From: Gemmatimonadaceae bacterium
GTDB taxonomy: Bacteria; Gemmatimonadota; Gemmatimonadetes; Gemmatimonadales; Gemmatimonadaceae
Reading direction: 5' to 3'
Length of the DNA stretch: 64,000 nt
NCBI GenBank assembly: GCA_051859245.1
Contig: JBHYGA010000008.1
Location: forward strand, 47,179 to 111,178
Shown: one piece after another, positions 28,171-63,931 of the stretch
Numbering within the stretch: position 1 is the stretch's first letter
Layout: each line of letters begins with the position of its first letter
The notes under the pieces: model-generated
Told to the model about the DNA's origin: nothing
Seen by the model: only the letters and a program-made list of their open reading frames with translations
Database searches by the model: none
Translations under genes and position numbers: made by a program

Positions 28171-28833
28171 TCACCCTCGGATTGCGTCAGAACGCTGCAC
28201 GTTCGAGCTTGCGACGTCGCGGGCCATGGGTTCACGCCCATTCGCATCGTGGCGCGCCGAAAAATCGGGCGCGTTCACACGCTCCGTGAGCAGTCGCGTG
28301 GTGAAGCGATTGGCTTCACTCATCTTTTCCATTTCAATGGCCACCGTGTCAATCGATTGTTCGATCGCATCCAGTCGACGCGCCACATCGTCAGGCGCTT
28401 TGCTGACGGTGCCGCGCCGATCAATCCAGCGCGCGATTGCGCGTCCGATGGGGAACGCCATGATGATGCCGATCAGTCCGATCACGCTGATGAACAGAAT
28501 TTCCGGCACCTGCGGTGGAATCACATTGTTCGCGTCGTATGGGACAACGGTCACGGCACCGTCGGGACTCGTTTGCACAATCTCGAGTCCATCGGGTCCA
28601 ACACGGATGTCGAAATCATTACCGCCGGGTGGAACCGGCGGTGCCGGGACTTCCTGCAGCGCTTCGAGTCGCGCCATCTCGGCTTCCGTGCGTGCTTCCT
28701 GCGCCGCTTCGCGCGCGGCTTGCATCGCTTCCTGAATGGTCTGCCGAATTTCTTCTTGATTGGTACGCGGCGCCTGCGCAGGCTGTCCTTGCTGCAATAC
28801 GGGTGCGCTTGATGGGAGTGTAAGGCGATTCAT
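28171..28833 (-). CDS. Single-TM hypothetical protein with coiled-coil C-terminus
   Basis: TM ILFISVIGLIGIIMAFPI; RRLDAIEQSIDTVAIEMEK; start overlaps kinase stop. Confidence 0.7.
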   Translation of the reverse strand: MNRLTLPSSAPVLQQGQPAQAPRTNQEEIRQTIQEAMQAAREAAQEARTEAEMARLEALQEVPAPPVPPGGNDFDIRVGPDGLEIVQTSPDGAVTVVPYDANNVIPPQVPEILFISVIGLIGIIMAFPIGRAIARWIDRRGTVSKAPDDVARRLDAIEQSIDTVAIEMEKMSEANRFTTRLLTERVNAPDFSARHDANGREPMARDVASSNVQRSDAIRG

Positions 28834-30197: not shown

Positions 30198-30241
30198 GGC
30201 TGGTAATTTACATGATTGTGTTGTCTCATGACCGGAGCGGA

Positions 30242-40096: not shown

Positions 40097-40352
40097 GGTG
40101 GTGTTTGAAGAGTCGATTTGGGAGTGTCGTGCACCGCGTTCCGATGCGCGCCACGTCAAAGCTCGCACCGCGTCGGGGTGGTTGGAAGGGTTTACGCGTG
40201 GTGCATTCCGCGTGTTCGACATTACAATTTCGCGCGCGTTCTTTATACGCACTATTGCGCAGTTGAAATGTCCACACGTATATTCGCGTTAATTCAACAA
40301 CTTGCGCGCGCTGTCCACAGTGGACGCCGCACTCACTGAACCCCGGAACTGC

Positions 40353-42002
40353 GTGGCCATAAACCGGCGCGAGTTTCTTCAAGGCACAAGCGCTGCAGCA
40401 GCGGCGCTCGGATTGACCGTCGGCGCTCCGTCGCTGCTGTCAGCCGAAGGCTTCGCTCCACGCATCGCACATCCGGGAACGCCGGGCGACGCCGTGTCTC
40501 GCGACCTCGCCCTGCTCGCGCTCGATGCCGCAAAGTCCGCCGGTGCGTCGTACGCCGACGCCCGCATCAGTCGCAACAACGTGCGCACCGTGGCCACCCG
40601 CGAACAGCGTGTGCTCGGCCTGGTCGATAACGAAACGTTTGGCATCGGCGTGCGCGTGCTGGTTGGTGGGGCGTGGGGTTTCGCCGCCACGCACGAGCTC
40701 ACGCGTGACGAAGTGATCCGCGTGGCCAAGCAGGCGGTCGCACAGGCGCAGGCCAATCGTTCGGCGCAGCGTCGTCCGGTTACGCTTGCGCCCGTGACGC
40801 CCACGCCCGATGGCACGTGGCGTTCGCCGGCGCGCATCGATCCGTTCGACGTGCCGATCGAAGACCAGGTCGGATTGCTGTTGCAGGCCAACGAGGCGGC
40901 ACTCAAAGTGCTCAAGCCCGGTGGACGCGGCATGGGTTTTGTGAACTCGTCCATGTTCTTCCTGCGCGAAGAAAAAACGCTGGCCACCACCGACGGTACG
41001 TTCGTGGTGCAGACGATTTATCGGTCGCAGCCGAGCATGACGTGTCAGGCGGTGAACGTGTCGGCGGGTGATTTTCAGTCGCGCCAGAGCACGGACATTC
41101 AGCCCATGGGGCGCGGGTACGAGCATGTGCTCGACGCGAACCTGGTGGTGAATGCGGAACGCTGGGCCACCGAAGCTACGGAAAAACTGAGCGCCAAATC
41201 GGTGGATGTGGGGCGCTACGATCTGGTGCTGCACCCCACGCATTTGTGGCTCACGATTCACGAATCGATTGCGCATCCCACCGAACTCGATCGCGCGCTT
41301 GGCTTCGAAGCCAACTACGCCGGCACCAGTTTTGTGGCGCCGCCGGAGCGTGTGCTCGGCTCGCTCAAGTTCGGTCCGGAGTTCATGAACGTGCAGGCCG
41401 ACCGCTCGCAGGAAGGATCGTTGGCGGCGGTGGGTTGGGATGACGAAGGCGTGAAGCCCGACGAGTTCCTGATCATCAAGAACGGCATCATGAACGACTA
41501 CCAGACCACGCGCGAACAGGCGCCGTATCTGGAATCGTGGTACCGCTCGCAGGGGCGCGAGGTGCGGTCGCACGGCAACTCGTATTCGCAAAGCTGGGCA
41601 GACGTGCAGTTCCAGCGTATGCCGAATGTGTCGCTCATGCCGGGCGAGCGTGATCTGGTGTGGGATGATCTCATTGCGGCTACAGATCGCGGGATCGCGA
41701 TTGTAGGTGACGGATCGTTCTCCATTGATCAGCAGCGCTACAACGCGCAGTTCGGCGGCCAGCTGTTCTACGAAATCCGCGGTGGCAAGATCGTGGGTAT
41801 GCTCAAGGACGTCGCGTATCAAATGCGCACGCCCGAGTTCTGGGGCGGCATGGATATGCTCGGCGGCAAGCGCAGCTACGTGCTGGGCGGTGCGTTCAAC
41901 GATGGCAAGGGTCAGCCCTCGCAGTCGAACGCCGTGAGCCATGGCTGCCCGCCCACGCGCCACAAAGCGGTGAATGTGATCAACACGGGACGGCAGTCGT
42001 GA
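40353..42002 (+). CDS. tldD: TldD metalloprotease with Tat-like leader
   Basis: NRREFL leader; HESIAH, DDEG, RMPN, SHGCP. Confidence 0.9.
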   Translation: MAINRREFLQGTSAAAAALGLTVGAPSLLSAEGFAPRIAHPGTPGDAVSRDLALLALDAAKSAGASYADARISRNNVRTVATREQRVLGLVDNETFGIGVRVLVGGAWGFAATHELTRDEVIRVAKQAVAQAQANRSAQRRPVTLAPVTPTPDGTWRSPARIDPFDVPIEDQVGLLLQANEAALKVLKPGGRGMGFVNSSMFFLREEKTLATTDGTFVVQTIYRSQPSMTCQAVNVSAGDFQSRQSTDIQPMGRGYEHVLDANLVVNAERWATEATEKLSAKSVDVGRYDLVLHPTHLWLTIHESIAHPTELDRALGFEANYAGTSFVAPPERVLGSLKFGPEFMNVQADRSQEGSLAAVGWDDEGVKPDEFLIIKNGIMNDYQTTREQAPYLESWYRSQGREVRSHGNSYSQSWADVQFQRMPNVSLMPGERDLVWDDLIAATDRGIAIVGDGSFSIDQQRYNAQFGGQLFYEIRGGKIVGMLKDVAYQMRTPEFWGGMDMLGGKRSYVLGGAFNDGKGQPSQSNAVSHGCPPTRHKAVNVINTGRQS

Positions 42003-43378
42003 GCGGCCCGCGTTCGCTGTACTCGGCCGCGCTCGCGCCGCATTTGTCGCGCGAGCAGGCGCAGGCGCTCACCGCGCGTGTCCTCAGCTTTTCTACGGCC
42101 GACGAGATGCGTGTGAACGTGAACTCGGGTTCTACGGCCAACACGCGCTTTGCGGTGAACCAGGTTTCCACGGCGGGTGACAACACCAACGTGTCGATCA
42201 CGGTGCGCGCGGTGTTCGGCAAAAAAGCCGGTAGTGCGACCACTAATCGCCTCGATGACGAATCGCTGCGCGCCGTGGTAAAGCGTGCCGAATCGCTCGC
42301 GCGACTGGCGCCGGAAGATCCGGAAATGCTACCCGAGCTCGGCCCGCAAACGTATTTGAATGGAAGTGCCTACTCCGCGAACACGGCCAATCTTGATCCG
42401 GCCGGACGTGCGCGAGCGGTGCAGGCCATTACCGAACCGGCCGCTGCGGCCGGACTAATCGCCACAGGTTATATGCAGGCCAACACCGGTTCGTCGGCGG
42501 TTGCCACGTCGCGCGGATTGTTTGCCTGGGCTGAACAAACGGCGTCGTCGCTCACCACCACGGTGCGCACCACAGACGGAACTGGTTCTGGTTGGGCCGG
42601 TGCCACGCATCATGATTGGTCGCGGATCAATCCCGCTGAACTCGGCGCGCGTGCCATCGACAAGGCTAAACGTTCGGCGAATCCCGTGGCTGTTGAACCG
42701 GGGCGTTACACCGTGGTGCTCGAGCCGACAGCGGTTGGCAACCTTGTGCAGTTGATCGTTGGTGCGGCGCAGGCGCGCTCGGCCGACGAAGGGCGTTCGT
42801 TTTTTTCAAAGCCTGGCGGCGGTACCAAGATCGGACTCAAAGTGGTGGATGAGCGCGTGACGCTGCTCTCCGATCCGCTGGATGCCGACGCGGCTGGCAG
42901 CACGTTTGGTGGCGATGGACTGCCCACGTCCAAAATGACGTGGATTGAAAACGGCGTGGTGAAGAACCTCGCGTACGATCGCTATTGGGCGCAGCAGAAG
43001 GGCGCACAGGCGTCGGCGTTTTCGGGTTCACTGCGCATGATGGGTGGCAACAGCAGTGTGGAGGAGATGATCGCGTCGACCGAGCGCGGACTCCTCGTGA
43101 CACGGCTCTGGTATATCCGACCGGTTGATCCGCGCACGATTCTGTTCACCGGCCTCACACGCGACGGCACGTTCCTCATTGAGAACGGCAAAGTCACGCG
43201 CGCGGTCAAGAATCTGCGGTGGAACGAGTCTCCGATTTTCATGCTCAACAACATTGAAGCGATGGGTGCACCGGTGCGTGTCAGCGCCAGTGAAGACGGC
43301 GGGCCTGGTCAGGCTGTCGTTGTTCCACCGCTCAAAGTTCGTGATTTCACATTCACCAGTCTTAGCGACGCGGTATAA
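41999..43378 (+). CDS. tldE: TldE/PmbA partner
   Basis: TRFAVN, PGRYTVVLEP, TGLTRDG, NLRWNES; overlaps tldD stop. Confidence 0.88.
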   Translation: MSGPRSLYSAALAPHLSREQAQALTARVLSFSTADEMRVNVNSGSTANTRFAVNQVSTAGDNTNVSITVRAVFGKKAGSATTNRLDDESLRAVVKRAESLARLAPEDPEMLPELGPQTYLNGSAYSANTANLDPAGRARAVQAITEPAAAAGLIATGYMQANTGSSAVATSRGLFAWAEQTASSLTTTVRTTDGTGSGWAGATHHDWSRINPAELGARAIDKAKRSANPVAVEPGRYTVVLEPTAVGNLVQLIVGAAQARSADEGRSFFSKPGGGTKIGLKVVDERVTLLSDPLDADAAGSTFGGDGLPTSKMTWIENGVVKNLAYDRYWAQQKGAQASAFSGSLRMMGGNSSVEEMIASTERGLLVTRLWYIRPVDPRTILFTGLTRDGTFLIENGKVTRAVKNLRWNESPIFMLNNIEAMGAPVRVSASEDGGPGQAVVVPPLKVRDFTFTSLSDAV

Positions 43379-52099: not shown

Positions 52100-52192
52100 G
52101 CAGCGCGACGGGATAAGGGTGGGCAGGCGAACGTATCTGCCACGCCCGTCCCGGTCAATGCCAGCACAACCGGAACATGAACAAAAGTGAAA

Positions 52193-52266
52193 TGCGCGCG
52201 GCAGGATTCGAACCTGCGACCTTCGCCTCCGGAGGGCGACGCTCTATCCAACTGAGCTACGCGCGC
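52193..52266 (-). tRNA. tRNA-Arg (CCG), CCA not encoded
   Basis: GCGCGCG acceptor stem, AGTTGGATA D-loop, TCGCC-CTCCGGA-GGCGA anticodon arm, GTTCGAATC. Confidence 0.96.
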
Positions 52267-52388
52267 AGTGTGGTAAGCCTAACGGCGCGGCCCCACTGCG
52301 AGCAAGCAGTTGACGCGAGGTAACGAGTGGCGACCGGCGTTGACGCGTGGTGACGCCAAGATGACGCCGGCTCGTATGCTGGGGCAGC

Positions 52389-53342
52389 TTGTCCACCCTA
52401 GCCCCTGATCGGATGCTCATAGAATTTGGCGTACCGCGCACCGCGCTCGCCGCTGTACGCGGTCTCCTTCCCGTTGGCGCCGAGCTGCATCACGCGGAGA
52501 GCATGCGCCGCCTTCGCTCGCTGGCGGGTCAAGCCAGCGGCGTGCTGGTCGGTTTCGAGGATCTCCCAACCGACGAGCTCATCGCGGACATGCAGCTGCT
52601 GCGGGTGCGGCATCCGTGGTTGCCAATCGTGGCCGCCGGCTCGGTCCCGATCTACGGTATCAGCTCCTTCAAGCGGCACGACCTGCTGCAGGCCGGCGTC
52701 GATCGCGTCATGTCCTTTACCGCGCCAACGCGGGCCGATCGCGCGCTGCGGGAAAGCTGGCGTCACTCGCCGCTCCAGCGACTCGCGGCCGTGGTGTATC
52801 ACGCGGAGCACGTCCCGGAGAACATTCGCGAGTTGATGGTCAAAGCGATTGCCGCGCAGGTGCCGGTCGCGAACGTAGCCGAACTCGCCAAGATCGGTGG
52901 AATGCATCGGGCGTCGCTCTGGAAGTCGTGGGCCCGTTCATCGCGACCCTTGCCCACGGCCGGCGCGTTTATTGACTGGCTGCAACTCCTGCACGTGGCG
53001 GTACGCAAAGACACCGGTCGCACCTGGCGGGGGGTGGCCAGCGAACTCGGCGTTCGTCATTCCTCCATTTCGCGCATGGGTAAGCGCGTATTGGGACACA
53101 CGCTCTCCGAGTATGACGAACGTGTGCGGCGTCGAATCTTTGATCGGTTTCTCCGCGACGCGGTTGGCTTCACGCAGCTGGAAATCCGAACGCACGCGCT
53201 CGTGGCCCCACCCTTGGTGGACGACGCCGGCGTGCCTGCCGCTCCGGTCCCTGATCCGCCGCCTCGCGATCCGGCGGTCGAGGCCGCCATTCGGGCCGAA
53301 CAGCGTGAGTACTACGGCATCGGGCGCATGTGGGCGATGTAG
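52389..53342 (+). CDS. AraC-like regulator with receiver-like N-terminal domain (start uncertain)
   Basis: Two HTHs: VAELAKIGGMHRASLWK and WRGVASELGVRHSSISR. Confidence 0.7.
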   Translation: MSTLAPDRMLIEFGVPRTALAAVRGLLPVGAELHHAESMRRLRSLAGQASGVLVGFEDLPTDELIADMQLLRVRHPWLPIVAAGSVPIYGISSFKRHDLLQAGVDRVMSFTAPTRADRALRESWRHSPLQRLAAVVYHAEHVPENIRELMVKAIAAQVPVANVAELAKIGGMHRASLWKSWARSSRPLPTAGAFIDWLQLLHVAVRKDTGRTWRGVASELGVRHSSISRMGKRVLGHTLSEYDERVRRRIFDRFLRDAVGFTQLEIRTHALVAPPLVDDAGVPAAPVPDPPPRDPAVEAAIRAEQREYYGIGRMWAM

Positions 53343-53370
53343 CGCGCCCACACGAAGTCCCACGCCCGTG

Positions 53371-54207
53371 TCAGTCGGCGGCGGCCACGCTGCCCTGCGC
53401 CGAAAAATGCACCATGGGCGTGGGCGAGGCGGCGCCGAACTCGCGGCGAAAGGTCTGGAGTGACTCTTCATACGCGCCTTCATGGCGCAACTGACGTACA
53501 CCCTTGCCGAGGTAGCGCTTGAGTAGCGAACCCAGGCTTCGCCACGACGGCACATCGAGCTGCGACGCGACCAGCGACAGTGGTGCGCCGTCAAAACAAA
53601 TCTGATGCGCGGCATACAGCGCGCGACACCAGCTCACGAGCTCACTGGCCGGCGGACTGCCGGCCCCGCGAAGCCGGTTGTGCAATGTGCGTCGACTGAG
53701 ACCGAGCCCCGCCGAGATGGATAGCACATCCAGCGGTTCGCGCAGGTGACGACAGATGAACTGCACCGTGAGGCGAACCTCACGAGGCAACCCTTCACTC
53801 ATCGCATCCGCGAGTCGCGACGAGACGCCGCGCTGCTCGGCGTTCTGTAACACACGCTGCAGCACGCTTCGCGAGTCGTCGATGTCTCGCAGCAGGAGGT
53901 CCGCGAGATCGGCTTTGCCCGTTTGCAGAATGAAGCGGGACGTCAGGTTGCGCGGGTCGACGTAACCGATAATCGGGTGGTCCGGAAAGGCGTGGCGCAG
54001 CTGTTCCACCGCTGCGAACGCTTCCTTCTGCCGCGACGGCTCAAACAGCACGACGGTGGCGCAGATCCTGATCGAGGCCGAGAGGGCCTCGATAACATCG
54101 GTGCCCGAGTCGGCTCGCCAGAGTACCGCGAAGCCGCGAAACGCCTCGGATAGCCGGGCGTGGGCAATCCGATCAACAAAAAGAAGGGCCACACGGCGTT
54201 CAGCCAC
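53371..54207 (-). CDS. AraC-like regulator with receiver-like N-terminal domain
   Basis: ISAGLGLSRRTLHNRL, VASQLDVPSWRSLGSLLKRYLG. Confidence 0.8.
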   Translation of the reverse strand: MAERRVALLFVDRIAHARLSEAFRGFAVLWRADSGTDVIEALSASIRICATVVLFEPSRQKEAFAAVEQLRHAFPDHPIIGYVDPRNLTSRFILQTGKADLADLLLRDIDDSRSVLQRVLQNAEQRGVSSRLADAMSEGLPREVRLTVQFICRHLREPLDVLSISAGLGLSRRTLHNRLRGAGSPPASELVSWCRALYAAHQICFDGAPLSLVASQLDVPSWRSLGSLLKRYLGKGVRQLRHEGAYEESLQTFRREFGAASPTPMVHFSAQGSVAAAD

Positions 54208-54225
54208 GCGTGGCCCCAAAAGTCG

Positions 54226-54255
54226 TTGCCCGTGGAGTGCACCAATTGCCCGTGG
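54226..54255 (+). promoter_or_regulatory. Tandem direct-repeat operator TTGCCCGTGG-N10-TTGCCCGTGG
   Basis: Exact 10-mers at 54226 and 54246; same arrangement at 56131-56160. Confidence 0.7.
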
Positions 54256-54315
54256 CGAGCACCCGCTCCGGTTTGAGAAGGGCTACTAGTTCTTCAACCC
54301 TTACCGGAGTCGCAA

Positions 54316-54444
54316 ATGTCACGTTCGATCCGCCTCTTGGCCGTAGCCCTGATCAGCTCGTTCGCCCTCGCCGCCTGCACGGGTTCACCGACCGGCGTTG
54401 ACGATCCAAAGCAGTCGAGCTTTGACACGATGCCTTGGGTGTGA
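54316..54444 (+). CDS. 42-aa lipoprotein-type propeptide MSRSIRLLAVALISSFALAACTGSPTGVDDPKQSSFDTMPWV
   Basis: GGAG RBS at 54306-54309; basic N-terminus, hydrophobic core, lipobox LAAC; fills the gap between regulator and TPR gene. Confidence 0.8.
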   Translation: MSRSIRLLAVALISSFALAACTGSPTGVDDPKQSSFDTMPWV

Positions 54445-54462
54445 TGTAGAGGCGGGGTGGGC

Positions 54463-55668
54463 TCACGCTGCCACTGAGCACAAACGAGCCAACCCTGTTC
54501 GGGCAGCCTCCGGAAGAGTCTCCTCAGCCGGACTGTCAGTCTCCAGCGACGCCGTGACGAGTGGCTGGGTCGTAACCCGATCCAGCGCCTCCTCGGCTCT
54601 ATACGCAAGTTCGTGGAATTCATGCGTGCGCGCCAGTGCCAGTGCCTCGCGGCCGAATCGTTCGGCCGGTTCTGGCTCGCTCGCGGCGGTCCACCCTTGC
54701 GCCAGACCCAGCAGCCACTGGCAGTGCTCGAAGGGCACGGCCGTGCTGGTGTGTCGCTGTCCACGGGTCTCAAGTTGTTTTAACAGGTCACGACGTCCGG
54801 CGTCCCCGGCGGCGTGCGCTGCGGACGCCGCAATGCTGAGCCAGAGCCGAGCCGGCTTGGCGAGGCGCAGGGCGCCCTCAAAGCCGGCCACTGCCTGGTC
54901 CACAAAACGGGCTCGGTGGGCGACCGACGCAAGGTTGGACAGAATACCGGCCCGCTCGTCGTCGGTGGTGGCCAGGTCGTGTGCCCGCCATCCGTGCAAC
55001 AGCGCATCGGCCAGCGAGTTGGTGGCCAGCGCGTAGTTCATCAGCCCCCACCGTGCGGCACCCTCAAGGGCGGTGTTCAACGGCGCGACGGCGAGGGCCT
55101 GGGTAAAAAAACCAAGCTGCGCCGGGCGATTGCCTCGCATGATGGCGATGTTGCCCAAACCCGCCAACGCCAAGCCAGCTACCGCCGGATAGCCGCGCGA
55201 CGTGCCGTCTTCCACCACGTTGCGGTAAATCTCCTCGGCCGTTTCCACGTCGCCGAGCTGTCGCGCAATACGTGCCAGCTGATTGTTGGCACACATCGCA
55301 CTCACCGCGTCGAATCGCGCGACAATTCGCGCCGCCGCCGTCACCGTGGTGTAGGCCATTTCAAAACAGCCGTCGCGCTCCATTTCTTCCGCGGCCACGC
55401 GCAGCTGTTCGGACATGACCACGAACGGATTCGCCGATCGCGGATTGCCGTAGTCGATATGCGTGGGACGTCGCTCCGGATCCGGCAGGAGCGACTCGGG
55501 CGTGGTGCGAATGAATCCCAGTCGCGCTTCTGGTGGAAGCGACGCGATTCGATACGCCAGATGCGTGATCGAGAACCAGCCATGCGGCTGCGTAGGGTGC
55601 CCGAGCCAGCGGTCCCCTTCGCCCACATCGACCTGATACGCGTTCATCGGAATTAGCGGTTCACGCAT
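54463..55668 (-). CDS. Cytoplasmic TPR-repeat protein
   Basis: AAGGAG RBS; helical repeats LARIARQLGDVETA, GLGNIAIMRGN, ILSNLA, AERFGREALALA; no signal peptide. Confidence 0.8.
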   Translation of the reverse strand: MREPLIPMNAYQVDVGEGDRWLGHPTQPHGWFSITHLAYRIASLPPEARLGFIRTTPESLLPDPERRPTHIDYGNPRSANPFVVMSEQLRVAAEEMERDGCFEMAYTTVTAAARIVARFDAVSAMCANNQLARIARQLGDVETAEEIYRNVVEDGTSRGYPAVAGLALAGLGNIAIMRGNRPAQLGFFTQALAVAPLNTALEGAARWGLMNYALATNSLADALLHGWRAHDLATTDDERAGILSNLASVAHRARFVDQAVAGFEGALRLAKPARLWLSIAASAAHAAGDAGRRDLLKQLETRGQRHTSTAVPFEHCQWLLGLAQGWTAASEPEPAERFGREALALARTHEFHELAYRAEEALDRVTTQPLVTASLETDSPAEETLPEAARTGLARLCSVAA

Positions 55669-55704
55669 CATCACTCCTTCTTCGGCAGTGGCCGACGGTT
55701 TGGT

Positions 55705-56040
55705 TCACGACAGGTTCTTCGCGTCATTTGACGCTGGCGGCAATGACAACGGTGGGGGACTGCTGAGCAGATCACCGCGGCTACGCAATAGATGCGCAAC
55801 ACGCAGCGCATCGATCACACGTTCGACCTGACCTGGTCGATCGCTGAACGGGAGATTGCACAACGCGACCATGAATCGCATCCATGCGGCCTCGTACCCC
55901 GCACGAATGCGCGCGTTGACCTCGTCGGGGGCTGCATCGCGAACCGCAGTGGCCGCCGTCAACAACTCTCGTTCCGCCAACCACACTTCATAGTGCGATT
56001 GCGACTCGGGGTCGTTGATAGGGTCAGGCGGATCGCTCAT
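55705..56040 (-). CDS. Small helical hypothetical protein
   Basis: ATG ORF co-oriented 36 nt upstream of the TPR gene. Confidence 0.55.
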   Translation of the reverse strand: MSDPPDPINDPESQSHYEVWLAERELLTAATAVRDAAPDEVNARIRAGYEAAWMRFMVALCNLPFSDRPGQVERVIDALRVAHLLRSRGDLLSSPPPLSLPPASNDAKNLS

Positions 56041-56130
56041 GCACGCGTGAAAATGGTGAAGGTCCAAGGCAACGAATTGCACATTCTCCAACCACAAACA
56101 TGTGCGATTTCCGGCGAGGGCATGTGTACC

Positions 56131-56160
56131 CCACGGGCATTTTGTGTGCACCACGGGCAA
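56131..56160 (-). promoter_or_regulatory. Tandem operator TTGCCCGTGG-N10-ATGCCCGTGG
   Basis: Plus strand CCACGGGCAT (56131) and CCACGGGCAA (56151). Confidence 0.7.
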
Positions 56161-56422
56161 CTGATTTCATGCCACGAGCCGTTTCGCCCGTCGTATCGTT
56201 GGGCTCGCTTGGCAAATTTTGTGTATCACGACACACTTTGGGGTGAAGCCAATCGTGTACCCGCGCCGTATACTGGGGCAGCAGAGGCGATGGCGCCGCA
56301 AGCCGGCCCAGCAACCTTTTGCCGGTTTCGCGCCACCAATGGGCGACCCTTTTCTGCGTTCGCTTCTATCTCACCACGTCGCCGACAGCTCCGGTCGGTC
56401 CCGCCCTGTGACCCGATAGCGC

Positions 56423-57616
56423 ATGTCATCTCGTATCACTCGTCCATCAGTGCTCCTGCTGCTCGGTTGTGTTGCGTTCGCCTGTAAGGGCGACGGAGAC
56501 GACAGCGCCAATGGCGATTCCACTGCTGACAGCGCCTCCGTGGCCGATGCAGCCCCCGACGGTGACGCACCACGCGCTGGCGTGGCGCTTCCCGTTGTGG
56601 CCGAAGAAGCGCGCGAAGGTGATCTCGTATTGCGGGTTAACACGCGCGGCGATGTATACGGCGATGTGGTGGTCAAGCTTTCAGCAGATGTCAGCGGCCG
56701 CGTGGCGGAAGTGCTGGTGAAGGCCGGTTCGCGCGTGAGCAAAGGGCAGCCGCTGGTTCGACTGGCGCAGGAACCGTTCGATCTCGCGGTTCGTGAGGCG
56801 CAGTCGGCACTCGACGAACGTGAACAGGCATTTCGCGAATCCTTCATGCCGGAATCGTTGGTCACGGGTATTGGCCCCACGGGCGAGCAGCGCAAAGCAC
56901 TTCGCGTGCGCAGTGGCGCGGCGGCGGCCGAAATTCGGCTTGAGAAAGCGCAGTGGGAACGGAGTCGTTCGGTGATTGTGTCACCGGTGAACGGCTTTAT
57001 TGACCGGTTTGATCTTGCGGTTGGTGAGCAGCTTGGTGCGGGCACACCGTTTGCAACGGTGGTGGACGTTGGCGCGCTGCGTATCGAAGCGCGTGTGCTC
57101 GAAGACGATCTACCGCTCATTCGTGTGGGCGGTGAAGCTGTGGTGTCGATTCCCGCCGTGCCCGGGCGCGTGTTGCGAGGACGTATCGATGCGGTGTTGC
57201 CGCTGGTGGATAGTGTGCGGCGTACGGGGCGCGTGATTGTGCGCGTGCCCGGCGAGTCATCACTGCGTCCAGGCATGTACGCGGATGTGCAGTTGGAAGC
57301 ACAGCGTTTGCCGGGGCGCATCATGGTGCCGGCTAAAGCGGTTATTGAACGCGATGGTCGTCCGCTGGTGTTCGTGGTGCGCGAGGGGCGCGGTCAGTGG
57401 ACGTACATTCAACCTGGTCGCAGTAACGGCGTAGACACGGAAGTGCTGCCCGACTCGACCACGGGTGTCATTCCGATCAACAAGGGCGATCAGATTATTG
57501 TAGACGGGCACCTCACGCTCACGCACGACGCCGCGGTTACGGTGTCCTCGCTGCGTGAACGCGATGATGCACCAGCGCGGCGCACGCCGGCGTCGGTGCG
57601 CCGCGAAAACAACTAG
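56423..57616 (+). CDS. RND efflux periplasmic adaptor (lipoprotein)
   Basis: Lipobox AFAC; VSGRV..V..G..VSKGQPL lipoyl motif; LRPGMY. Confidence 0.92.
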   Translation: MSSRITRPSVLLLLGCVAFACKGDGDDSANGDSTADSASVADAAPDGDAPRAGVALPVVAEEAREGDLVLRVNTRGDVYGDVVVKLSADVSGRVAEVLVKAGSRVSKGQPLVRLAQEPFDLAVREAQSALDEREQAFRESFMPESLVTGIGPTGEQRKALRVRSGAAAAEIRLEKAQWERSRSVIVSPVNGFIDRFDLAVGEQLGAGTPFATVVDVGALRIEARVLEDDLPLIRVGGEAVVSIPAVPGRVLRGRIDAVLPLVDSVRRTGRVIVRVPGESSLRPGMYADVQLEAQRLPGRIMVPAKAVIERDGRPLVFVVREGRGQWTYIQPGRSNGVDTEVLPDSTTGVIPINKGDQIIVDGHLTLTHDAAVTVSSLRERDDAPARRTPASVRRENN

Positions 57617-57626
57617 GCCGAGACGC

Positions 57627-60600
57627 ATGTCACTTTCGCGTCAGGCGATCGCACGTCCCGTCGCCACGATTGCTGCGGTACTTGGCGTGGTGCTGCTCGG
57701 CAGTGTCTCGCTGAGTCGCATGCCGGTGTCGCTGCTACCGGATGTCACGCTGCCCGTGTTGACCATTCGCACCAACTATCCAGGTGCGGCCGCAACGGAA
57801 GTCTCGCGGTTTGTTGGCGAACCCATTGAAGAAGCCATCGCGGCCACGCCGGGCTTGGTGGAGTTGCGATCGGTCAGTCGCAATGGCGAAGTCACCACAA
57901 CGGCGCGCTTTGGCTGGGGCACGGACATGCGCACCACGGTGCTCAATGTGCGTGAGCGCCTTGATGCCACGCGCAGCCGACTGCCCGAGCGTGCAGAACG
58001 TCCCACACTGCTCACCAGTGATCCCGGTGAACGGCCGATCGCGGTGCTCGGTATGCGGGCCACCAGCAGCGCGGAACGAGCGGCGCGTGACAGTTTGCAG
58101 GGCAGTGTCTCCGGTGGGCTTGGTGTGGGTGACCTGCGCGGACTTGCGCGCACCGCCGAAGATGTGTTCGCGCGACGTCTCGAGCAGATCGCCGGCGTGG
58201 CATCGGTTGCGGTGGTGGGTGCACCAGCCGACGAAATTCGCGTTGATGTGAATCCGGATCGATTGCGCGCGTTGTCACTCACACCGGAAGATGTCGCACA
58301 GGCCATTCGCGTTCAGAACTCCACCGGTGCCGGTGGTACGGTGCGTCGCGGACAGTTCCGGTTTTCGGTGCGTGCGCTGACGGAGTTTCGCGATATCGAT
58401 GAAATCCTGTCGGTACCGATTGGCGCACAGGGCAGTGGCATCACGCTACGCGATGTTGCGACGGCCTCAATCGCGCTAGCTGATCCGGTCACGATCACGC
58501 GCCTCGACGGTCGCGAGTCCATTGGTCTCGTGGTGTACAAAGACGCGGGCTCCAATACGGTGTCTGTCACCAACCGCATGATGGAAGCTGTGGAGTCGCT
58601 GGAAGCCGAGTTTCCGGCGGTGGAACTCACGGTGGTGGCGTCGCAGGCCGAGTTCGTGGTGGACGCGTTGTCTAATCTCGGTCAGGAAATTGTGGTGGGC
58701 GGCCTGATGTCGCTGCTCATGATTCTGGTGTTCCTGCGTGACTGGCGCGTGTCGATGGCGATTGGACTGATGGTGCCACTGTCGGTGATGGTGGCGCTGG
58801 TCACGTTGCAAACGCTCGGTGTGACGATCAACGTGCTCTCGCTGGGCGGACTCGCGCTTGGCACCGGTATTCTTGTTGATACTGCAATTGTTGTGGCGGA
58901 GGGTGTGGGACGACGGCGTGAAGAAGGTATGGGCTACATCGATGCGGCAATAGTGGGCACGGAAGAAGTGTCCGGACCACTGCTCGCGGGTACGCTCACC
59001 ACGATGCTGGTGTTTGGGCCGATCATTTTTGTGCAAGGATTGGCGGCTGCACTGTTCCGCGATCTGTCGCTGAGCGTGGTGATGACGGTTGGTGCGTCAC
59101 TGCTGCTGTCGCTCACCCTGATGCCGGTAATGATGGTGGGCAACCGGCGACGGGCCATGCGTTTGCAGGCCAATCCACAACCGAAAAAAGCGCCGGGCCC
59201 AACCGGCGCAAAGCTTGATGCCTTCGGTACGCGCATCGCAGATATGTACGAACACGGCATGTCATGGTCGCTGCGCAATCCGGTGCCAGTTTTTGCCGGT
59301 GGTTTGGCGTTGCTGGTGATCATGGTGGTGCTGTTCATTCGCTTGCCCAAGGAAGTGCTGCCGCGTGTTGACGAGGGCGTGCTGGTAGCCGAAGTGCAGT
59401 TGCCGGAAGGAACGGCGATCGAAGCCACCACCACCGCCATCGCCGACATTGAGCGCGCGTCCGCCGCGATGGGTGCGCAGGGAGTGTACGCACGTGTTGG
59501 TCGTGCAACTGATGAAGAAATTCTTTCGGGCGCAAATCCCGGATCGTCGGCCACGGCACAACTGATTGTGCCAGTACCCGACGGTGAGAGTGCGGCGCGT
59601 TTTGCAGAGGCACTCCGCGATTCCGTGCCGCAGCTGGTCGCGCAAGGTGCGCTCGCCATTGATCTGGCCGGCCAGTCGGAGTTTGGCTCGCTGATTGGCC
59701 GCGAAGGGCGCATTGTGCGCGTGGAAGTGTCGGGTGCATCGCTTGACGATTCGCAGCGATGGGCCGATTCCGTGCGCACCATGATGGGCGGCGTGCCCAC
59801 GCTTTCCGATGTGCGCGACGCCTTTGCGGCGACACAGCCGGTGATCGAAGTCTCGCTGTTGCGTTCGCGCATGGCCGAACGTGGCATCACGCCCGCACAA
59901 GTGGCGAGTGCGTTGCAGGGTGGACTGGGCGGTGTGGCGTCATCTGAACTGCGCGAAACAGATCGCCGTACACCAATTCGCGTTCGCTACGAAGGTGTGC
60001 GCAACGAGGAGTTGGAAACCGCGCTCAATACGAGCATTAACGGCGTGCCGGTGTCGCAGCTGGTTGAAGTGAAGGAAACGCGCGCGCCGCTTGAAGTGGT
60101 GCGTATTGGTCAGCGTCCCGTGTCCATTGTGGAAGGGCTCGTGGAAGAAGGGGGCACGGCGAAAGCCGCCACTGATGTGGCAAAGAACATGGAAGCACTC
60201 GGACTACCGGCCACGGTGAGCTGGCAGGTGGCGGGAGCAGACTCCGAACGCAAGCGTACCTCGGATGAGTTGGCGCTCGTTGCTGTGTTGGCCGTGCTGC
60301 TGGTGTTCCTCGTGCTCGCTGGCGAGTTCAGCTCGTTCACGATTCCGCTCGTGGTGATTACCACGGTACCGCTGGCAGCTGCCGGAGGCGTGATCTTCTT
60401 GTGGGCCACTGGGCAAAGCATCAACGCCGTGTCGCTCATCGGAATCGTGATCATGGTGGGTATGGCCGACAATGAAGCGGTCGTCAAACTCGACGCCATT
60501 CGGCGATTCCGCGAAATGGGTCACAGCGTGAACGAGTCGGTGTTGCTCGGTGGCCGACAGCGTTTGCGCGCCATTACCATGACGTCACTCACCACCATCA

Positions 60601-60851
60601 CCGGTGTACTGCCGCTCATGCTTGGCGTGGGCAGTGGTGGCGCGTTGTACCGTCCGCTTGCGGCGGCCGTGATTGGTGGATCAATCAGCGCACTGGTGGT
60701 GACGTTTTTCCTGTTGCCCACCGTGTACTCCGTTGTTGAGCGCAATCTTGAACGTCGTCGCAACGCGCAGGACGCTCGTGATGGCGGAAGTCGCGATGGT
60801 GAAGCGCGTGTTGCGCGTGATGTGGTACTCGCCCGAGGGGACGCGCTGTGA
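57627..60851 (+). CDS. RND efflux permease
   Basis: RPVAT, YPGA, INVLSLGGLALGTGILVD, RLRAITMT. Confidence 0.93.
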   Translation: MSLSRQAIARPVATIAAVLGVVLLGSVSLSRMPVSLLPDVTLPVLTIRTNYPGAAATEVSRFVGEPIEEAIAATPGLVELRSVSRNGEVTTTARFGWGTDMRTTVLNVRERLDATRSRLPERAERPTLLTSDPGERPIAVLGMRATSSAERAARDSLQGSVSGGLGVGDLRGLARTAEDVFARRLEQIAGVASVAVVGAPADEIRVDVNPDRLRALSLTPEDVAQAIRVQNSTGAGGTVRRGQFRFSVRALTEFRDIDEILSVPIGAQGSGITLRDVATASIALADPVTITRLDGRESIGLVVYKDAGSNTVSVTNRMMEAVESLEAEFPAVELTVVASQAEFVVDALSNLGQEIVVGGLMSLLMILVFLRDWRVSMAIGLMVPLSVMVALVTLQTLGVTINVLSLGGLALGTGILVDTAIVVAEGVGRRREEGMGYIDAAIVGTEEVSGPLLAGTLTTMLVFGPIIFVQGLAAALFRDLSLSVVMTVGASLLLSLTLMPVMMVGNRRRAMRLQANPQPKKAPGPTGAKLDAFGTRIADMYEHGMSWSLRNPVPVFAGGLALLVIMVVLFIRLPKEVLPRVDEGVLVAEVQLPEGTAIEATTTAIADIERASAAMGAQGVYARVGRATDEEILSGANPGSSATAQLIVPVPDGESAARFAEALRDSVPQLVAQGALAIDLAGQSEFGSLIGREGRIVRVEVSGASLDDSQRWADSVRTMMGGVPTLSDVRDAFAATQPVIEVSLLRSRMAERGITPAQVASALQGGLGGVASSELRETDRRTPIRVRYEGVRNEELETALNTSINGVPVSQLVEVKETRAPLEVVRIGQRPVSIVEGLVEEGGTAKAATDVAKNMEALGLPATVSWQVAGADSERKRTSDELALVAVLAVLLVFLVLAGEFSSFTIPLVVITTVPLAAAGGVIFLWATGQSINAVSLIGIVIMVGMADNEAVVKLDAIRRFREMGHSVNESVLLGGRQRLRAITMTSLTTITGVLPLMLGVGSGGALYRPLAAAVIGGSISALVVTFFLLPTVYSVVERNLERRRNAQDARDGGSRDGEARVARDVVLARGDAL

Positions 60852-63800
60852 TTGGTTTCGCCACGCGCCGACCGGCCGTTATCTGGGCCATGTGCGTTGC
60901 CATTCTGGTGGCGGGCGGCATCGCGTTTTCGCGCTTGCCGTTGGCATCGCGGACTACGGTAGAGCTGCCGCGGCTCACGGTGTCGGCCGGGTGGAATGGC
61001 GCGGCGGCGGAAGTTGTGGAGATGTACGTGACGTCGCCGATCGAATCGTTGGTGCAGGGCGTGCGCGGTGTACGTCGCACCACCAGTGAGTCGCGCGACA
61101 ACAGCATGAACATTACCGTGGAGCTCGATCCGGAAGCCGACGTGCAACTCGCGAGACTTGGCATTCTCGAGCGACTGGAACTGTTGCGTGGTGAGTTTCC
61201 GGCCGGTGTAACGCGACCGAGTGTCTCGAACTACACACCGGAGGGGTTGGAAGAGCCGGTGTTGTTGCAGGTGCAGGTCTCTGGTCCGTACACGCCGGGT
61301 GCGCTTGGCAAAATGCTTGAGGAACAGGCGTCGCCTCGGCTCGCCGCAGTACCTGGCGTGTCGGCTGTGTATTCGCGTGGCGGAAGTGATATCGGCGTGG
61401 CGTTGGCATACGATCCCGCGCGGCTTCGCCGGATCAATGTGTCGCCGGCGGCACTGTCGCAAGCGATCAATGGCGCGCGCGTTGTACAGGCGCTCGGTGA
61501 AGAAACGCGTGATGGTGTCACACGTTCGGTCACATTGCGTGATGAACCGCGCTCACTCGATGAAGTGGGTGCCCTGCCGATCAGTGCGCCGAACGATCGT
61601 GTGTTTCGCCTGAGCGAACTCTCCACGATTCGCGCCGAAGAAGATGCCGGCGGACGGTTTTTTCGGATTAACGGCGTTCCTGCTGTGGCGATCAGTTTGT
61701 ATCGGCATGCTGGTGCCGATGCCATCAAGACCGCGTTGGCGGCACGCGCGGAAGTGGCCGAGTTGCAGAAGATCGCGCCACCTGGCGTTCGGTATCGTGT
61801 GAGTCAGGATGCCAGCATCGATCTCGACAAAGAATTGAAAGATCTGATGAAGCGCGGAGCAATTGCGTTTGTCAGCGTATTGCTCGTGTTGGCGCTCATG
61901 TTGCAACGTGTTCGTGCGGTCGCACTCGTGATGTTCAGCACGGCGGTGGCCATTGCCGGTACGGCGCTGGGTTTGTACATGCTGGATGTGCCGGCGAACT
62001 TGCTCACGCTGGCTGGACTTGGCATGGGTGTTGGAATTCTGGTGCAAAACGCACTGGTCGTTGTAGACCGGATGCGCTCGGCGCCGAACACGGCCGAGGG
62101 GCGCGCGACTGCCGCATCACGCATCACGCCGGCGGTGATTGGTGCAACGCTTACCACGGCGGTGGTGCTCTTTCCGTTTCTGTATCTGCAAGGTGACACG
62201 CGCGCTGCGTTCGTGCCGTTTGCGGCTGCCTTCGCGCTGGCGCTCACGTGGAGTGTGATTACGGCGTTGCTGGTGGTGCCCGCGCTCGGCCGAGGTGGTG
62301 CGGGCGAGAAGGCGGTCACGTGGCCGCGCATGTCACGCGTGTTCAGAAAGATTGTGCGTGGGACGCTGCGCTGGCGCTGGGCCACGCTCACAACAAGTGT
62401 GGTGCTGTTGTCAGTGATGACGTGGGGTTTTGTGAAAAAGGTGCCGCGCTCGAGTTGGGGTGGCTGGGGCGAGCGTCGCACCACACTGGGGGTGAATCTC
62501 ACATTCCCGCGCGGCTCGGATCCGGAAACGCTCGACCGCGCGATGCGCGAGTTTGAATCGATTGTTGTTGGTCGTCCGGAAGTGGAGCAGGTGACCACGA
62601 CCGGCAACTTGCAGAGTGCGAACATGCAGGTGCTGTTCACGCGCGAAGGTGGCATGACGGCCGTGCCACTGGAGCTCGAAGAGCTGCTCACGCAGCGCGC
62701 TGTGCTCGTGGGTGGTGCAAACATCAGCGTACGCGGTGAAGGGCCGGGCTTTTACGCTGGTGGTGGCGGTGGCACATCGGTGTCGTTCCGAATTCGCGTG
62801 CTTGGATATTCGTATTCTGGCGTCACAGCGTTGGCCGAAGACTTGAAGAGTCGCCTGAGCAAGATTGCGCGAGTTCGCGACATTTCCATTACATCGGGTC
62901 AGGGGTGGGGGAACGAACGTGGTTACGCCGTCACGCTCGAGCCTGATCGCGATGCGCTCGCACGTTTTGGTGTGACGTCAACAGACTTTGCGGCTGCGGT
63001 GGCGCGTGAAGTTCGTGGACCGGTGGGTGGCCAGCTGCTGGAAATCGACGGCGACGAACTGCCGGTAACCGTGAAGTCCATTGGCGCGCGAGATCGCACA
63101 CTGGAGCAGTTGCGTGAAGCAATCATGCCCACGGAATCAGGTGCACCGGCCCGCCTGAGTGACCTCGCCTACGTGGATGCGCAGGAAGCGCTGAGCATTG
63201 TGACGCGTGAAGACCAGCAGTATATCCGGCAGGTGAACTACGACTTTCGTGGCCCACAGAAACTTGCGCAACGCACCCACGATGCGTTTCTGAAATCAGT
63301 GGCCGTTCCCGCCGGATACGATGTGAAAGACGCCGGCTCCATGTGGGGCTACAACGACGACAAGAGTGCGAAAGGGTTGTGGTTGGTGTTTGGCATCGGG
63401 CTCGCGTTGGTCGTACTCGCGGTCGCGCTGGTGTTTGATTCCGTTTGGGGCGCGGCCATGGTGTTTCTGTCGCTGCCACTCGCGCTCGCCGGTGTTGTGG
63501 CAGCGTTCTGGATCCAAAAGGCCGCGTTTGGTCGCGAAGCGGCGGTTGGTGTGATTCTTGTGGTGGGATTGGCCGTGAACCAGGCGATTCTGCTGGTTGA
63601 TGCGGCACTCATTCGTCGCCGACAGCGTGCGGCGACGGGTGGATCCAGCGCACTGCACGCCGGAGATATTCTGCGCGCCGCCAATGATCGCTCCGGCATG
63701 ATTGTGCTCGTCACGTTGAGTGCGCTGGCGAGTCTCGTGCCGCTGAGTGTGGGAACCAGCGCTACCACATTGTTCGGTGCGATCGCACTGGCAACGGCCG

Positions 63801-63931
63801 GCGGCACGATCATGGGAACGGTTGGCGCGTTGTTCCTCATGCCGGCGATGCTTGTTGGGCAGCGGTTGAGTAAGCGAACGAAGCGGCGGTTGTTCTCGAA
63901 GAAGCAGCCGAGGGAAGTGGTGGCGGTGTAG
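60848..63931 (+). CDS. Second, divergent RND permease
   Basis: TSPIES, NLLTLAGL, GLAVNQAILL; overlaps the previous stop. Confidence 0.88.
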   Translation: MIGFATRRPAVIWAMCVAILVAGGIAFSRLPLASRTTVELPRLTVSAGWNGAAAEVVEMYVTSPIESLVQGVRGVRRTTSESRDNSMNITVELDPEADVQLARLGILERLELLRGEFPAGVTRPSVSNYTPEGLEEPVLLQVQVSGPYTPGALGKMLEEQASPRLAAVPGVSAVYSRGGSDIGVALAYDPARLRRINVSPAALSQAINGARVVQALGEETRDGVTRSVTLRDEPRSLDEVGALPISAPNDRVFRLSELSTIRAEEDAGGRFFRINGVPAVAISLYRHAGADAIKTALAARAEVAELQKIAPPGVRYRVSQDASIDLDKELKDLMKRGAIAFVSVLLVLALMLQRVRAVALVMFSTAVAIAGTALGLYMLDVPANLLTLAGLGMGVGILVQNALVVVDRMRSAPNTAEGRATAASRITPAVIGATLTTAVVLFPFLYLQGDTRAAFVPFAAAFALALTWSVITALLVVPALGRGGAGEKAVTWPRMSRVFRKIVRGTLRWRWATLTTSVVLLSVMTWGFVKKVPRSSWGGWGERRTTLGVNLTFPRGSDPETLDRAMREFESIVVGRPEVEQVTTTGNLQSANMQVLFTREGGMTAVPLELEELLTQRAVLVGGANISVRGEGPGFYAGGGGGTSVSFRIRVLGYSYSGVTALAEDLKSRLSKIARVRDISITSGQGWGNERGYAVTLEPDRDALARFGVTSTDFAAAVAREVRGPVGGQLLEIDGDELPVTVKSIGARDRTLEQLREAIMPTESGAPARLSDLAYVDAQEALSIVTREDQQYIRQVNYDFRGPQKLAQRTHDAFLKSVAVPAGYDVKDAGSMWGYNDDKSAKGLWLVFGIGLALVVLAVALVFDSVWGAAMVFLSLPLALAGVVAAFWIQKAAFGREAAVGVILVVGLAVNQAILLVDAALIRRRQRAATGGSSALHAGDILRAANDRSGMIVLVTLSALASLVPLSVGTSATTLFGAIALATAGGTIMGTVGALFLMPAMLVGQRLSKRTKRRLFSKKQPREVVAV

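Follow-up and report, generated by a model that had tools for sequence, protein, structure and literature searches.

A stretch of 64,000 nucleotides from a Gemmatimonadaceae genome (GenBank assembly GCA_051859245.1, contig JBHYGA010000008.1, positions 47,179 to 111,178), referred to here as the window, contains five open reading frames (ORFs) between a gene for tRNA-Arg(CCG) at 52192-52267 and a divergent RND efflux operon. An earlier note on this DNA had listed the five ORFs and proposed that they encode a peptide-signalling cassette of the RRNPP type; all five are present in the window as it had them. We read the interval best as a conserved, self-contained regulatory module of Gemmatimonadaceae. 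Its core would consist of reg2, a receiver-AraC factor, a tiny pre-lipoprotein ending in ...PW-x (the lipopeptide), and a protein of ~400 aa predicted to consist of tetratricopeptide repeats (TPR). The products of the remaining two frames, reg1 and a small ORF (sORF), appear to be lineage-specific additions to this module.

reg1 occupies 52389-53342 on the + strand and encodes 317 aa, with orthologues starting near M9 (52413). The frame of reg2 is open over 53371-54219 on the - strand, and translation likely starts at GTG 54207 (53371-54207), which yields a protein of 278 aa that matches the database copy P0049 in length. Transcribed divergently from reg2 is the lipopeptide gene (54316-54444, + strand), whose 42-aa product begins MSRSIRLLAVALISSFALAAC... 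and whose ATG follows a GGAG at a distance of 8-11 nt. The TPR gene is convergent with it on the - strand, an open frame of 54463-55674 with a likely start at ATG 55668 (54463-55668, 401 aa); from this ATG the protein opens MREPL, as its homologues do. Upstream on the same strand lies sORF, whose stop codon is 36 nt from the TPR start, with an AAGGAG ribosome-binding site before the TPR gene. The sORF had been drawn over its full open frame, 55705-56160. The gene exists, but this extent is too long, as the first 40 codons cross the repeat motif described below and orthologues start at ATG 56040; the corrected gene covers 55705-56040 and encodes 111 aa. Two tandem sites complete the layout, operator 1 at 54226-54265 (+) between reg2 and the lipopeptide gene, and operator 2 at 56121-56167 (-) upstream of sORF. 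Each consists of two 20-bp direct repeats, and the pair is the same at both: box A TTGCCC and box B GTGCAC/GAGCAC.

Conservation of the module and its operator

Do these genes form a unit, or are they held together by inherited gene order alone? With an alignment of the close homologues of the TPR protein, we retrieved 41 Gemmatimonadaceae loci, all of them from Gemmatimonadota. A profile of the lipopeptide, run against all loci in six frames, gave exactly one hit in 37 of the 41, and each hit lies immediately beyond the stop codon of the TPR gene, on the opposite strand. Of the four loci missed, three are contigs ending no more than 161 nt after the TPR gene, and the fourth is L027, which carries a TPR-GAF fusion. 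The lipopeptide gene is convergent with the TPR gene in 37 of the 38 assessable loci. The check that the earlier note had proposed, a look for peptide ORFs beside TPR homologues, is thereby passed: a lipobox ORF of fewer than 80 aa with a conserved C-terminus is found in these 37 loci and again in two distant paralogous loci. By tblastn and profile search reg2 is present in 37/41 loci, in agreement with the earlier assignment of an AraC-type factor to the unit. The flanks vary: rho was found in 31/41 loci, the HlyD adaptor of the RND operon in 26/41, an occupied sORF slot in 31/41, and reg1 in 8/41 by tblastn or 10/41 by profile.

A protein search of plasmids identified two distant paralogues of the TPR protein (30-35% identity over ~60%), on megaplasmids 1 and 2 of Gemmatirosa kalamazoonensis. 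At both loci (L042 5750-6500 on plasmid 2, L043 5750-6500 on plasmid 1) a convergent lipobox ORF comes next after the TPR gene, and a receiver-AraC gene after that. The TPR genes match the family profile with E 4e-55 and 2e-49, and the AraC genes match theirs with E 2e-60 and 3e-56, scoring 40-44 bits against HTH_18, above the cut-off. The megaplasmid lipopeptides are longer, 69 and 75 aa, and end in ...AAKCCVQPWY and ...NLCDATQPWWLC (the latter being ...QPWWLC). Both rho and the RND operon are absent from these two loci. Because the flanks vary while the trio stays, and because the trio recurs on two megaplasmids, the TPR/lipopeptide/receiver-AraC trio is a module beyond inherited synteny. 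The two neighbourhoods are unrelated, with an S41 protease, a methyltransferase and a hybrid kinase in L042 and FecCD, PhoD and an integrase in L043; the S41 enzyme, a C-terminal processing protease with a PDZ domain, is encoded 1.5 kb from the TPR gene. Elsewhere in the window there are no paralogues of the TPR protein, the lipopeptide or the regulators, and within the 41 loci none was found bar one overlapping frame in L010. A genomic island at tRNA-Arg was considered as an origin of the interval and rejected, as the flank (rho, and the tRNA where inspected) is common across the family.

The two operators are equally part of the picture. The motif TTGCCCGTGG-N-GTGCAC occurs twice with a period of 20 nt at 54226-54263 (+), and again at 56124-56161 (-); the two 38-nt tandem sites are 79% alike. 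The 9-mer TGCCCGTGG is found in 5 copies in the 64 kb of the window compared to 0.97 expected, a count reached in 0 of 100 shuffles. Four of the five copies fall within the two tandem sites, which confirms that the lipopeptide gene and the sORF-TPR operon carry the same tandem motif, as had been noticed earlier. A site profile was trained on 27 peptide-upstream sites (from relatives and the window), leaving the sORF/TPR-side sites out of training. Run on the whole window at E<=10, it returned two places alone, 54218-54266 and 56121-56167, the second of which, on the sORF side and outside the training set, was recovered with E 2.9e-4. Operator 1 begins 90 nt before the lipopeptide ATG, and 19 nt separate it from the start codon of reg2; operator 2 lies ~85 nt upstream of the sORF ATG.

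Applied to 413,129 bases in 42 sequences (the 41 loci and 8 kb of the window), the profile produced 69 hits at E<=1, with 34 upstream of a lipopeptide gene, 33 upstream of sORF/TPR and 2 elsewhere. The operator proposed to be shared by the lipopeptide gene and the TPR operon thus holds across the family (67 of the 69 hits), and both sites are present in 29/42 sequences. Support for co-regulation of the two transcription units is strong. Its placement is strict on the peptide side, where 27 of 28 regex-positive loci have the start of the repeat 89-93 nt upstream of the ATG. Downstream of the repeat come a conserved TAnnnT-like word and a conserved leader ending in GGAG. Where sORF is absent, the operator is found ~95-140 nt before the TPR start.

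Each 20-bp unit combines a conserved 5' box A (TTGCCC, with TTTCCC or TTGCAC in some clades) and a clade-specific 3' box B, which differs between clades and is identical across all four units of one genome. Identity of repeat units between the two promoters averages 0.805 within a genome versus 0.636 across genomes (0 of 5000 permutations; L001 dropped as a near-duplicate of the window), and for 11 clade representatives 0.766 versus 0.591 (again 0 of 5000), kinship among the genomes inflating both permutation tests. The telling pattern is the concerted change of four repeat copies at two promoters: operators 1 and 2 are one shared, co-evolving cis-element. The predicted DNA-binding domain of reg2 follows a similar pattern. 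Its recognition helix 1 is near-invariant, as is box A, and its recognition helix 2 shifts by clade along with box B. In L010-L012, a His-to-Tyr exchange in helix 1 pairs with a change from TTGCCC to TTGCAC in 11 of 12 repeat units.

Properties of the encoded proteins

The lipopeptide has the layout of a bacterial lipoprotein with a signal of the SPase II type, made up of a positive n-region (R3 and R6), a hydrophobic h-region (LLAVALISSFA) and a lipobox that ends in Cys (L-A-A-C21); the signal was called by the lipobox consensus. The mature part, CTGSPTGVDDPKQSSFDTMPWV, comprises 22 aa, counting Cys21, the residue predicted to be lipid-modified, and the precursor is expected to be exported and lipidated via Lgt/LspA. 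Its maximum KD(15) hydropathy value is 2.44. Invariant in 31 aligned orthologues are R6, A19, A20, C21, T26 and W41, and P40 is nearly so; the conserved ends of the mature part are joined by a Pro-rich linker of variable length. In 33 of the 37 loci the C-terminus is PW followed by one residue (V, T, H, N or G), and in one it is TWG. At three chromosomal loci the lipopeptide runs 8-17 residues beyond PW-x, with two Cys. Counting the two Gemmatirosa paralogues, five loci have Cys pairs next to the PW motif or on both sides of it, which suggests a folded, disulfide-held periplasmic epitope.

Is so small a frame a gene at all? Among 14 close relatives, the variable columns of the first 29 codons are distributed 9/0/23 over the codon positions, and synonymous changes outnumber replacements in every comparison. 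This pattern marks a translated gene under purifying selection, and the frame is a true, conserved gene. In the same genomes identity amounts to 74-100% for the lipopeptide, 55-91% for the TPR protein and 54-76% for reg2. Signal peptide residues 7-29 are near-identical in the 14 relatives despite up to 14 synonymous changes per 29 codons (window 54316-54402), a degree of conservation that seems to exceed what export alone usually demands. The family makes up 54 clusters in a large protein collection, unnamed or labelled 'hypothetical' bar one automatic 'YifL' label, and one member comes from the cultured Gemmatimonas groenlandica (P0233). Pfam searches with all 31 members gave scattered hits (best E 0.036), and NCBIfam gave the LptM signal region (E 0.05) and YgdI/YgdR (E 0.21), both far under the cut-off. 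The possibility of a precursor of a ribosomally synthesized and post-translationally modified peptide was rejected, as a modifying enzyme linked across the loci was not found. The stop codons of the convergent lipopeptide and TPR genes are 18 nt apart (window 54442-54465), the ORFs overlap in L018, and a terminator-like hairpin between the two stop codons was not seen. Transcripts from the two genes, which carry the same type of operator, must collide, and antisense or collision effects are possible.

The AlphaFold2 model of the TPR protein (pLDDT 87.3, pTM 0.83) consists of three N-terminal helices, an unstructured linker and sixteen helices that form eight hairpins; it ends in a disordered stretch (371-379) and a confidently placed, conserved tail helix (389-402). 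Its fold matches are generic superhelices, such as LGN/Pins, OGT, designed CTPRs and domain III of MalT. No RRNPP receptor was present among the best 49 matches in the PDB or the best 50 viral fold matches. At E<=10, the TPR profile retrieved NprR from the PDB (E 1.1), while Rap, PlcR, Rgg, PrgX and AimR were absent from the hits. The first 45 residues are devoid of a hydrophobic stretch, with a maximum KD(15) of 0.69 as compared to 2.44 for the lipopeptide, and the protein is likely to be cytoplasmic. It has 47 close homologues of ~400 aa. A search of 1.84 billion representatives with the TPR profile yielded 4,675 matches at E<=1e-3, 760 at E<=1e-10 and 183 at E<=1e-30. In the Atlas, its closest clusters belong to Gemmatimonadota and count 61 to 1,559 members. 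Of 33 relatives scanned for domains, 31 contain TPR families, one is blank and one has a marginal extra match under the cut-off, and none contains a helix-turn-helix (HTH) or enzymatic domain. The eight relatives that we read share an N-terminal M..PL..L.AY..D motif. As modelled, the protein is a superhelix of the peptide- or protein-binding type, apparently with neither a DNA-binding nor an enzymatic domain.

One relative departs from this architecture. In L027 (6886-9123, +) the TPR family domain shares one reading frame with two GAF domains (GAF_2, 110 bits, 2 stretches), a fusion ORF of at least 746 aa that runs off the contig. sORF and the tandem operator are still upstream, and neither a lipopeptide gene nor reg2 was found in the 1,140 nt downstream of the fusion ORF; the TPR part can therefore presumably work in a peptide-free setting.

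The window copy of reg2 alone scores 23.4 bits against HTH_18 (PF12833), under the cut-off of 33.6, and PF12833 is detected in 24 of 30 reg2 homologues. Against the PDB, the family profile finds the AraC DNA-binding domains of AdpA (2.8e-13), VirS, SoxS and XylR; the DNA-binding domain is likewise matched by chains entitled 'two-component response regulator' or 'hybrid two-component system protein'. In the AlphaFold2 model (pLDDT 89.3), residues 9-110 form a (beta-alpha)5 domain, after which come a long helix and the seven helices of the C-terminal part; its best fold matches are the response regulators FixJ, StyR, PorX, RcsB and CheY. The receiver half (residues 1-120) contains no invariant residue and no near-invariant acidic residue. 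After beta-3, the column where the phospho-acceptor is expected reads E, D, G, R or H depending on the clade, and the receiver is apparently not phosphorylatable. A histidine kinase is absent from the module, and the nearest in the window is encoded at 28833-30368. reg2 is therefore an orphan degenerate (pseudo-)receiver fused to an AraC/XylS DNA-binding domain. Most loci outside clade A end reg2 with SLP-x-x-S-x-A-D-stop (13 of 20; alignment columns ~280-305), and the window copy ends ...AAAD (window 53371-53424). The tail is preceded by a linker of low confidence (pLDDT <50, residues 265-282), and is a candidate docking site for the TPR domain.

Regulatory model and alternative explanations

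How could these components work together? We think it moderately probable that reg2 acts on two promoters, that the TPR protein is its feedback partner and that the lipopeptide is exported. Two reg2 monomers would bind the two 20-bp direct repeats in the manner of XylS at Pm and, from a site overlapping the -35 region, would activate rather than repress the lipopeptide and (sORF-)TPR promoters. Because operator 1 abuts the reg2 start codon at a distance of 19 nt, reg2 probably also regulates its own gene. The TPR protein, produced under control of reg2, would in turn bind reg2 and feed back, perhaps by contacting the pseudo-receiver domain or the conserved C-terminal tail, while the lipopeptide would be exported and anchored by its lipid. 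According to passages in PMC5481539, two XylS monomers occupy two direct repeats, and helices 3 and 6 read the box A and box B of each. Control of AraC factors by protein partners, TPR chaperones of type III secretion included, is described in PMC10761746, PMC10977090, 10.1101/2022.04.20.488988 and PMC4552939. A further precedent for the proposed feedback is the action of Rap proteins on response regulators.

Several observations weigh against this model. The site profile misses the two-sided operator in 13/42 sequences, some of which belong to divergent clades that a clade-biased profile would miss. Overlap of the operator with the -35 region is a guess from the conserved TAnnnT-like words, and a consensus scan for sigma-70-like promoters found none. 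The proposed binding of reg2 to the operator draws on position and on covariation, the latter being common to kin by descent; L020 breaks the pairing of helix 1 with box A by combining His with TTTCCC. Word searches of the paralogous Gemmatirosa loci allowing up to 3 mismatches did not find a second copy of the peptide-side repeat, and an inverted-repeat scan of these loci was swamped by GC-rich noise. The TPR protein is structurally generic, and linkage and precedent are the grounds on which it is proposed to pair with reg2.

Could the lipopeptide also return as a signal? In the RRNPP-like loop put forward by the earlier note, the C-terminal PW-x fragment would be released, re-imported and bound in the TPR groove, upon which the TPR protein would release or capture the receiver-AraC factor; such a circuit would act as a gauge of cell density or of proteolysis in the periplasm. 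We regard this as improbable. The pairing of an exported-peptide gene with a TPR gene in 37/38 assessable and two paralogous loci speaks for such a loop. The lipobox predicts a membrane-anchored product rather than a free peptide, atypical for RRNPP and distinct from the Sec/SPase I signal of Phr. The adjacent gene of ~40 codons resembles phr in encoding an exported peptide with a conserved C-terminal part, here an invariant Trp behind a Pro-rich linker of variable length, but PW-x is not C-terminal in three chromosomal loci and Cys residues surround the motif in the Gemmatirosa paralogues. The common operator of both genes is what autoinduction would predict, although the genes are convergent, unlike rap-phr, which form an operon. 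Phr peptides diversify, whereas the lipopeptide is highly conserved (74-100% identity versus 55-91% for the TPR protein) and displays no pherotype-like diversification. TPR grooves do bind extended or C-terminal peptides, and, as the earlier note had it, the TPR protein is Rap-like in that no HTH was detected: like Rap it has ~380-400 aa, three N-terminal helices, a linker and 7-8 repeats. This order parallels that of RapF, for which passages in PMC3601957 give a 3-helix bundle (1-68), a linker (69-97) and TPRs (98-370), and name response regulators as Rap targets; reg2, with its receiver fold, would be of the same target class. The resemblance to RapF is one of layout, not evidence of kinship. 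Membership of the RRNPP group is not borne out, as the all-helical, TPR-type receptor candidate has no sequence or preferential fold affinity to Rap, Rgg, NprR, PlcR, PrgX, ComR or AimR among the best matches listed, and the host is a diderm of the Gemmatimonadota instead of a Firmicute. Passages in PMC9765709, and likewise the abstract of PMC10075063, report RRNPPA genes in Firmicutes alone. An Opp/Dpp/Nik-family permease encoded 40 kb away in the window (Opp4C 314 bits, cut-off 350) shows that the transporter family is present and no more; an exporter, importer or protease linked to the module across loci was not found, and L027 has its TPR-GAF fusion with no lipopeptide or reg2 in the 1,140 nt that follow. 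Similarly doubtful to us is that the module represents the first circuit outside Firmicutes to sense peptides inside the cell in the manner of Rap/Phr, with an origin of its own in a diderm phylum; the pseudo-receiver AraC factor would in that case drive both the lipopeptide gene and the gene of its receptor.

Does the lipopeptide have to return at all? It might be an envelope-anchored effector in the periplasm or outer membrane, regulated by the AraC-TPR pair on a cytoplasmic cue with no return signal, and could then serve as a tethered ligand for a periplasmic protein or act on the neighbouring RND pump. We consider this possible, if on the unlikely side. An invariant lipobox, strong purifying selection with no diversification, and two conserved ends of the mature peptide joined by a flexible linker, as for a tethered ligand, all fit this explanation, as do the Cys pairs around PW in five loci. 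A HlyD-type adaptor and two RND permeases adjoin operator 2, and the adaptor is found in 26/41 loci; the RND operon is, however, missing from the other 15 and from both Gemmatirosa paralogues, hence not a constant partner. The module itself encodes no periplasmic partner, and a pure effector would give no reason for the linkage of TPR and lipopeptide genes in every copy. The same linkage bears on a last alternative, chance proximity under slow rearrangement next to rho, in which the repeat would belong to the promoter itself or be recognised by a factor encoded elsewhere. A large part of the synteny is indeed inherited, with a rho-side flank common to 31/41 loci, and the proposed tie between reg2 and the repeat is drawn from sequence. 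But the trio recurs on two megaplasmids devoid of rho; reg1, sORF and HlyD come and go while the trio stays; 67 of 69 operator hits are at these two promoters; and the operator co-varies between promoters within a genome and with recognition helix 2 of reg2. We hold chance proximity to be highly improbable.

Activation by reg2 with TPR feedback can also be compared to other known systems. Enterococcal sex pheromones are derived from lipoprotein precursors, as remnants of the signal peptide, and are sensed by PrgX/TraA, which bear an HTH and are plasmid-borne. The combination of a lipoprotein precursor with a cytoplasmic repeat-protein receptor (a candidate here) is similar, but the candidate epitope of the lipopeptide is its C-terminus, though its signal peptide is also unusually conserved, and the module TPR protein has no HTH. 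REC-AraC response regulators of the YesN type share with reg2 the order of receiver and AraC DNA-binding domain, whereas reg2 is devoid of a conserved acceptor Asp and of an acidic pocket, and the module of a histidine kinase. TPR chaperones of type III secretion are small, three-repeat proteins tied to the secretion apparatus and its substrates. In partner control of the InvF-SicA, MxiE-IpgC and ExsA type, as far as the sources cited above describe it, an AraC activator depends on a protein partner, a TPR protein. The TPR protein of the module differs from SicA and IpgC in having ~8 repeats and 401 aa, and secretion-system genes were not found in the window. With XylS, reg2 shares a predicted seven-helix DNA-binding domain with two HTH motifs and an operator of two direct repeats, in each of which a 5' box and a 3' box are spaced by roughly one turn of the helix. 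Pm has two 15-bp box A/box B repeats according to passages of PMC5481539, as opposed to a period of 20 bp in the module, and the module motif TTGCCC...GCACAC is unrelated. The N-terminal domain of reg2 is a degenerate receiver, not a cupin or a sugar- or benzoate-binding domain, and reg2 has no known effector.

No account of such a module in Gemmatimonadota came up in our literature searches, and the claim extends only as far as these. The phylum is abundant in soil and freshwater, and little is known of how its members regulate their genes. The module is compact and family-wide, and it occurs in cultured species (a family member in G. groenlandica, two paralogous copies in Gemmatirosa kalamazoonensis). 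With its clear cis-element and a co-evolving candidate regulator, it is directly testable. If the TPR protein senses the lipopeptide, cytoplasmic peptide sensing in the manner of RRNPP would extend beyond the Firmicutes, and a lipoprotein would serve as the precursor in a diderm. The chromosomal copy by rho in most Gemmatimonadaceae and the two megaplasmid copies of Gemmatirosa would, if an RRNPP-like loop exists, resemble the multiplication of rap-phr cassettes in Bacillus. Should there be no peptide sensing, the locus would still introduce tiny lipoproteins of a new family, ending in ...PW-x, as well as a new subfamily of pseudo-receiver/AraC factors along with its operator and a family of TPR partners with thousands of uncharacterised relatives in the phylum.

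Neighbouring and accessory genes

Chromosomal and high in GC, the window carries housekeeping genes that include ruvABC, yebC, tyrS, a class A penicillin-binding protein, fpg, thiE, mltG/yceG, ruvX and rho. The RND efflux operon (56423-63928, +) encodes a HlyD-type adaptor (56423-57616) and two consecutive AcrB-family permeases in an MdtB/MdtC-like arrangement; it is divergent from sORF, and the intergenic region common to both (a gap of 382 nt) holds operator 2. A search of the interval for known RNAs found the tRNA alone, and a terminator scan gave 3 terminator-like sites versus 3.2 expected. Family scans covered 111 ORFs from a plain ORF list, and no secretion-system family was found among them. 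A receiver-PglZ protein (9856-11415, +) matches the NCBIfam equivalog PorX, a type IX secretion response regulator, with 537 bits compared to a cut-off of 300. The Opp/Dpp/Nik-family ABC permease mentioned above is encoded at 14372-15208 (+), with Opp4C as its best model, and the adjoining ORF of 362 aa (13287-14372) has no family match at the thresholds used. A TldD/PmbA metallopeptidase pair (40302-43375, +) and a 920-aa protein with an M14 carboxypeptidase domain (35132-37891, -) are located 11-19 kb from the module.

The sORF product is a small helical protein of 111 aa with 27 invariant columns among 10 close orthologues and no match in Pfam, NCBIfam or the PDB. Homology of the sORFs of clade A to those of other clades was rejected (hhalign 0.7%), and because the two groups show no detectable relatedness we treat sORF as a lineage-variable accessory slot.

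The earlier note had counted two AraC regulators. This stands for reg2, which is of AraC type and belongs to the core, but reg1 is at most weakly AraC-like, a similarity at the level of a lead, and is confined to a subclade. reg1 has no match in Pfam, NCBIfam or the PDB, and BLASTP detected no similarity to reg2. In an hhalign comparison, reg1 and the reg2 family aligned collinearly over 207 columns with 48% probability and E 1.8e-4. Proteins of ~300 aa from Gemmatimonadota make up the Atlas clusters closest to reg1, and 26 of 30 hits are in sets that carry HTH_18. reg1 is probably a divergent paralogue of reg2 that was added in one subclade and is not part of the core. Upstream of reg1 (window 52309-52372) we observed a tandem word of its own, (A/G)TGACG repeated ~11 nt apart, together with a GTTGACGCG.GGT.ACG pair 30 nt apart. 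The word TGACG-N5-6-TGACGC is found upstream of reg1 in all 7 of the 7 other loci inspected, and is possibly the operator of reg1 itself.

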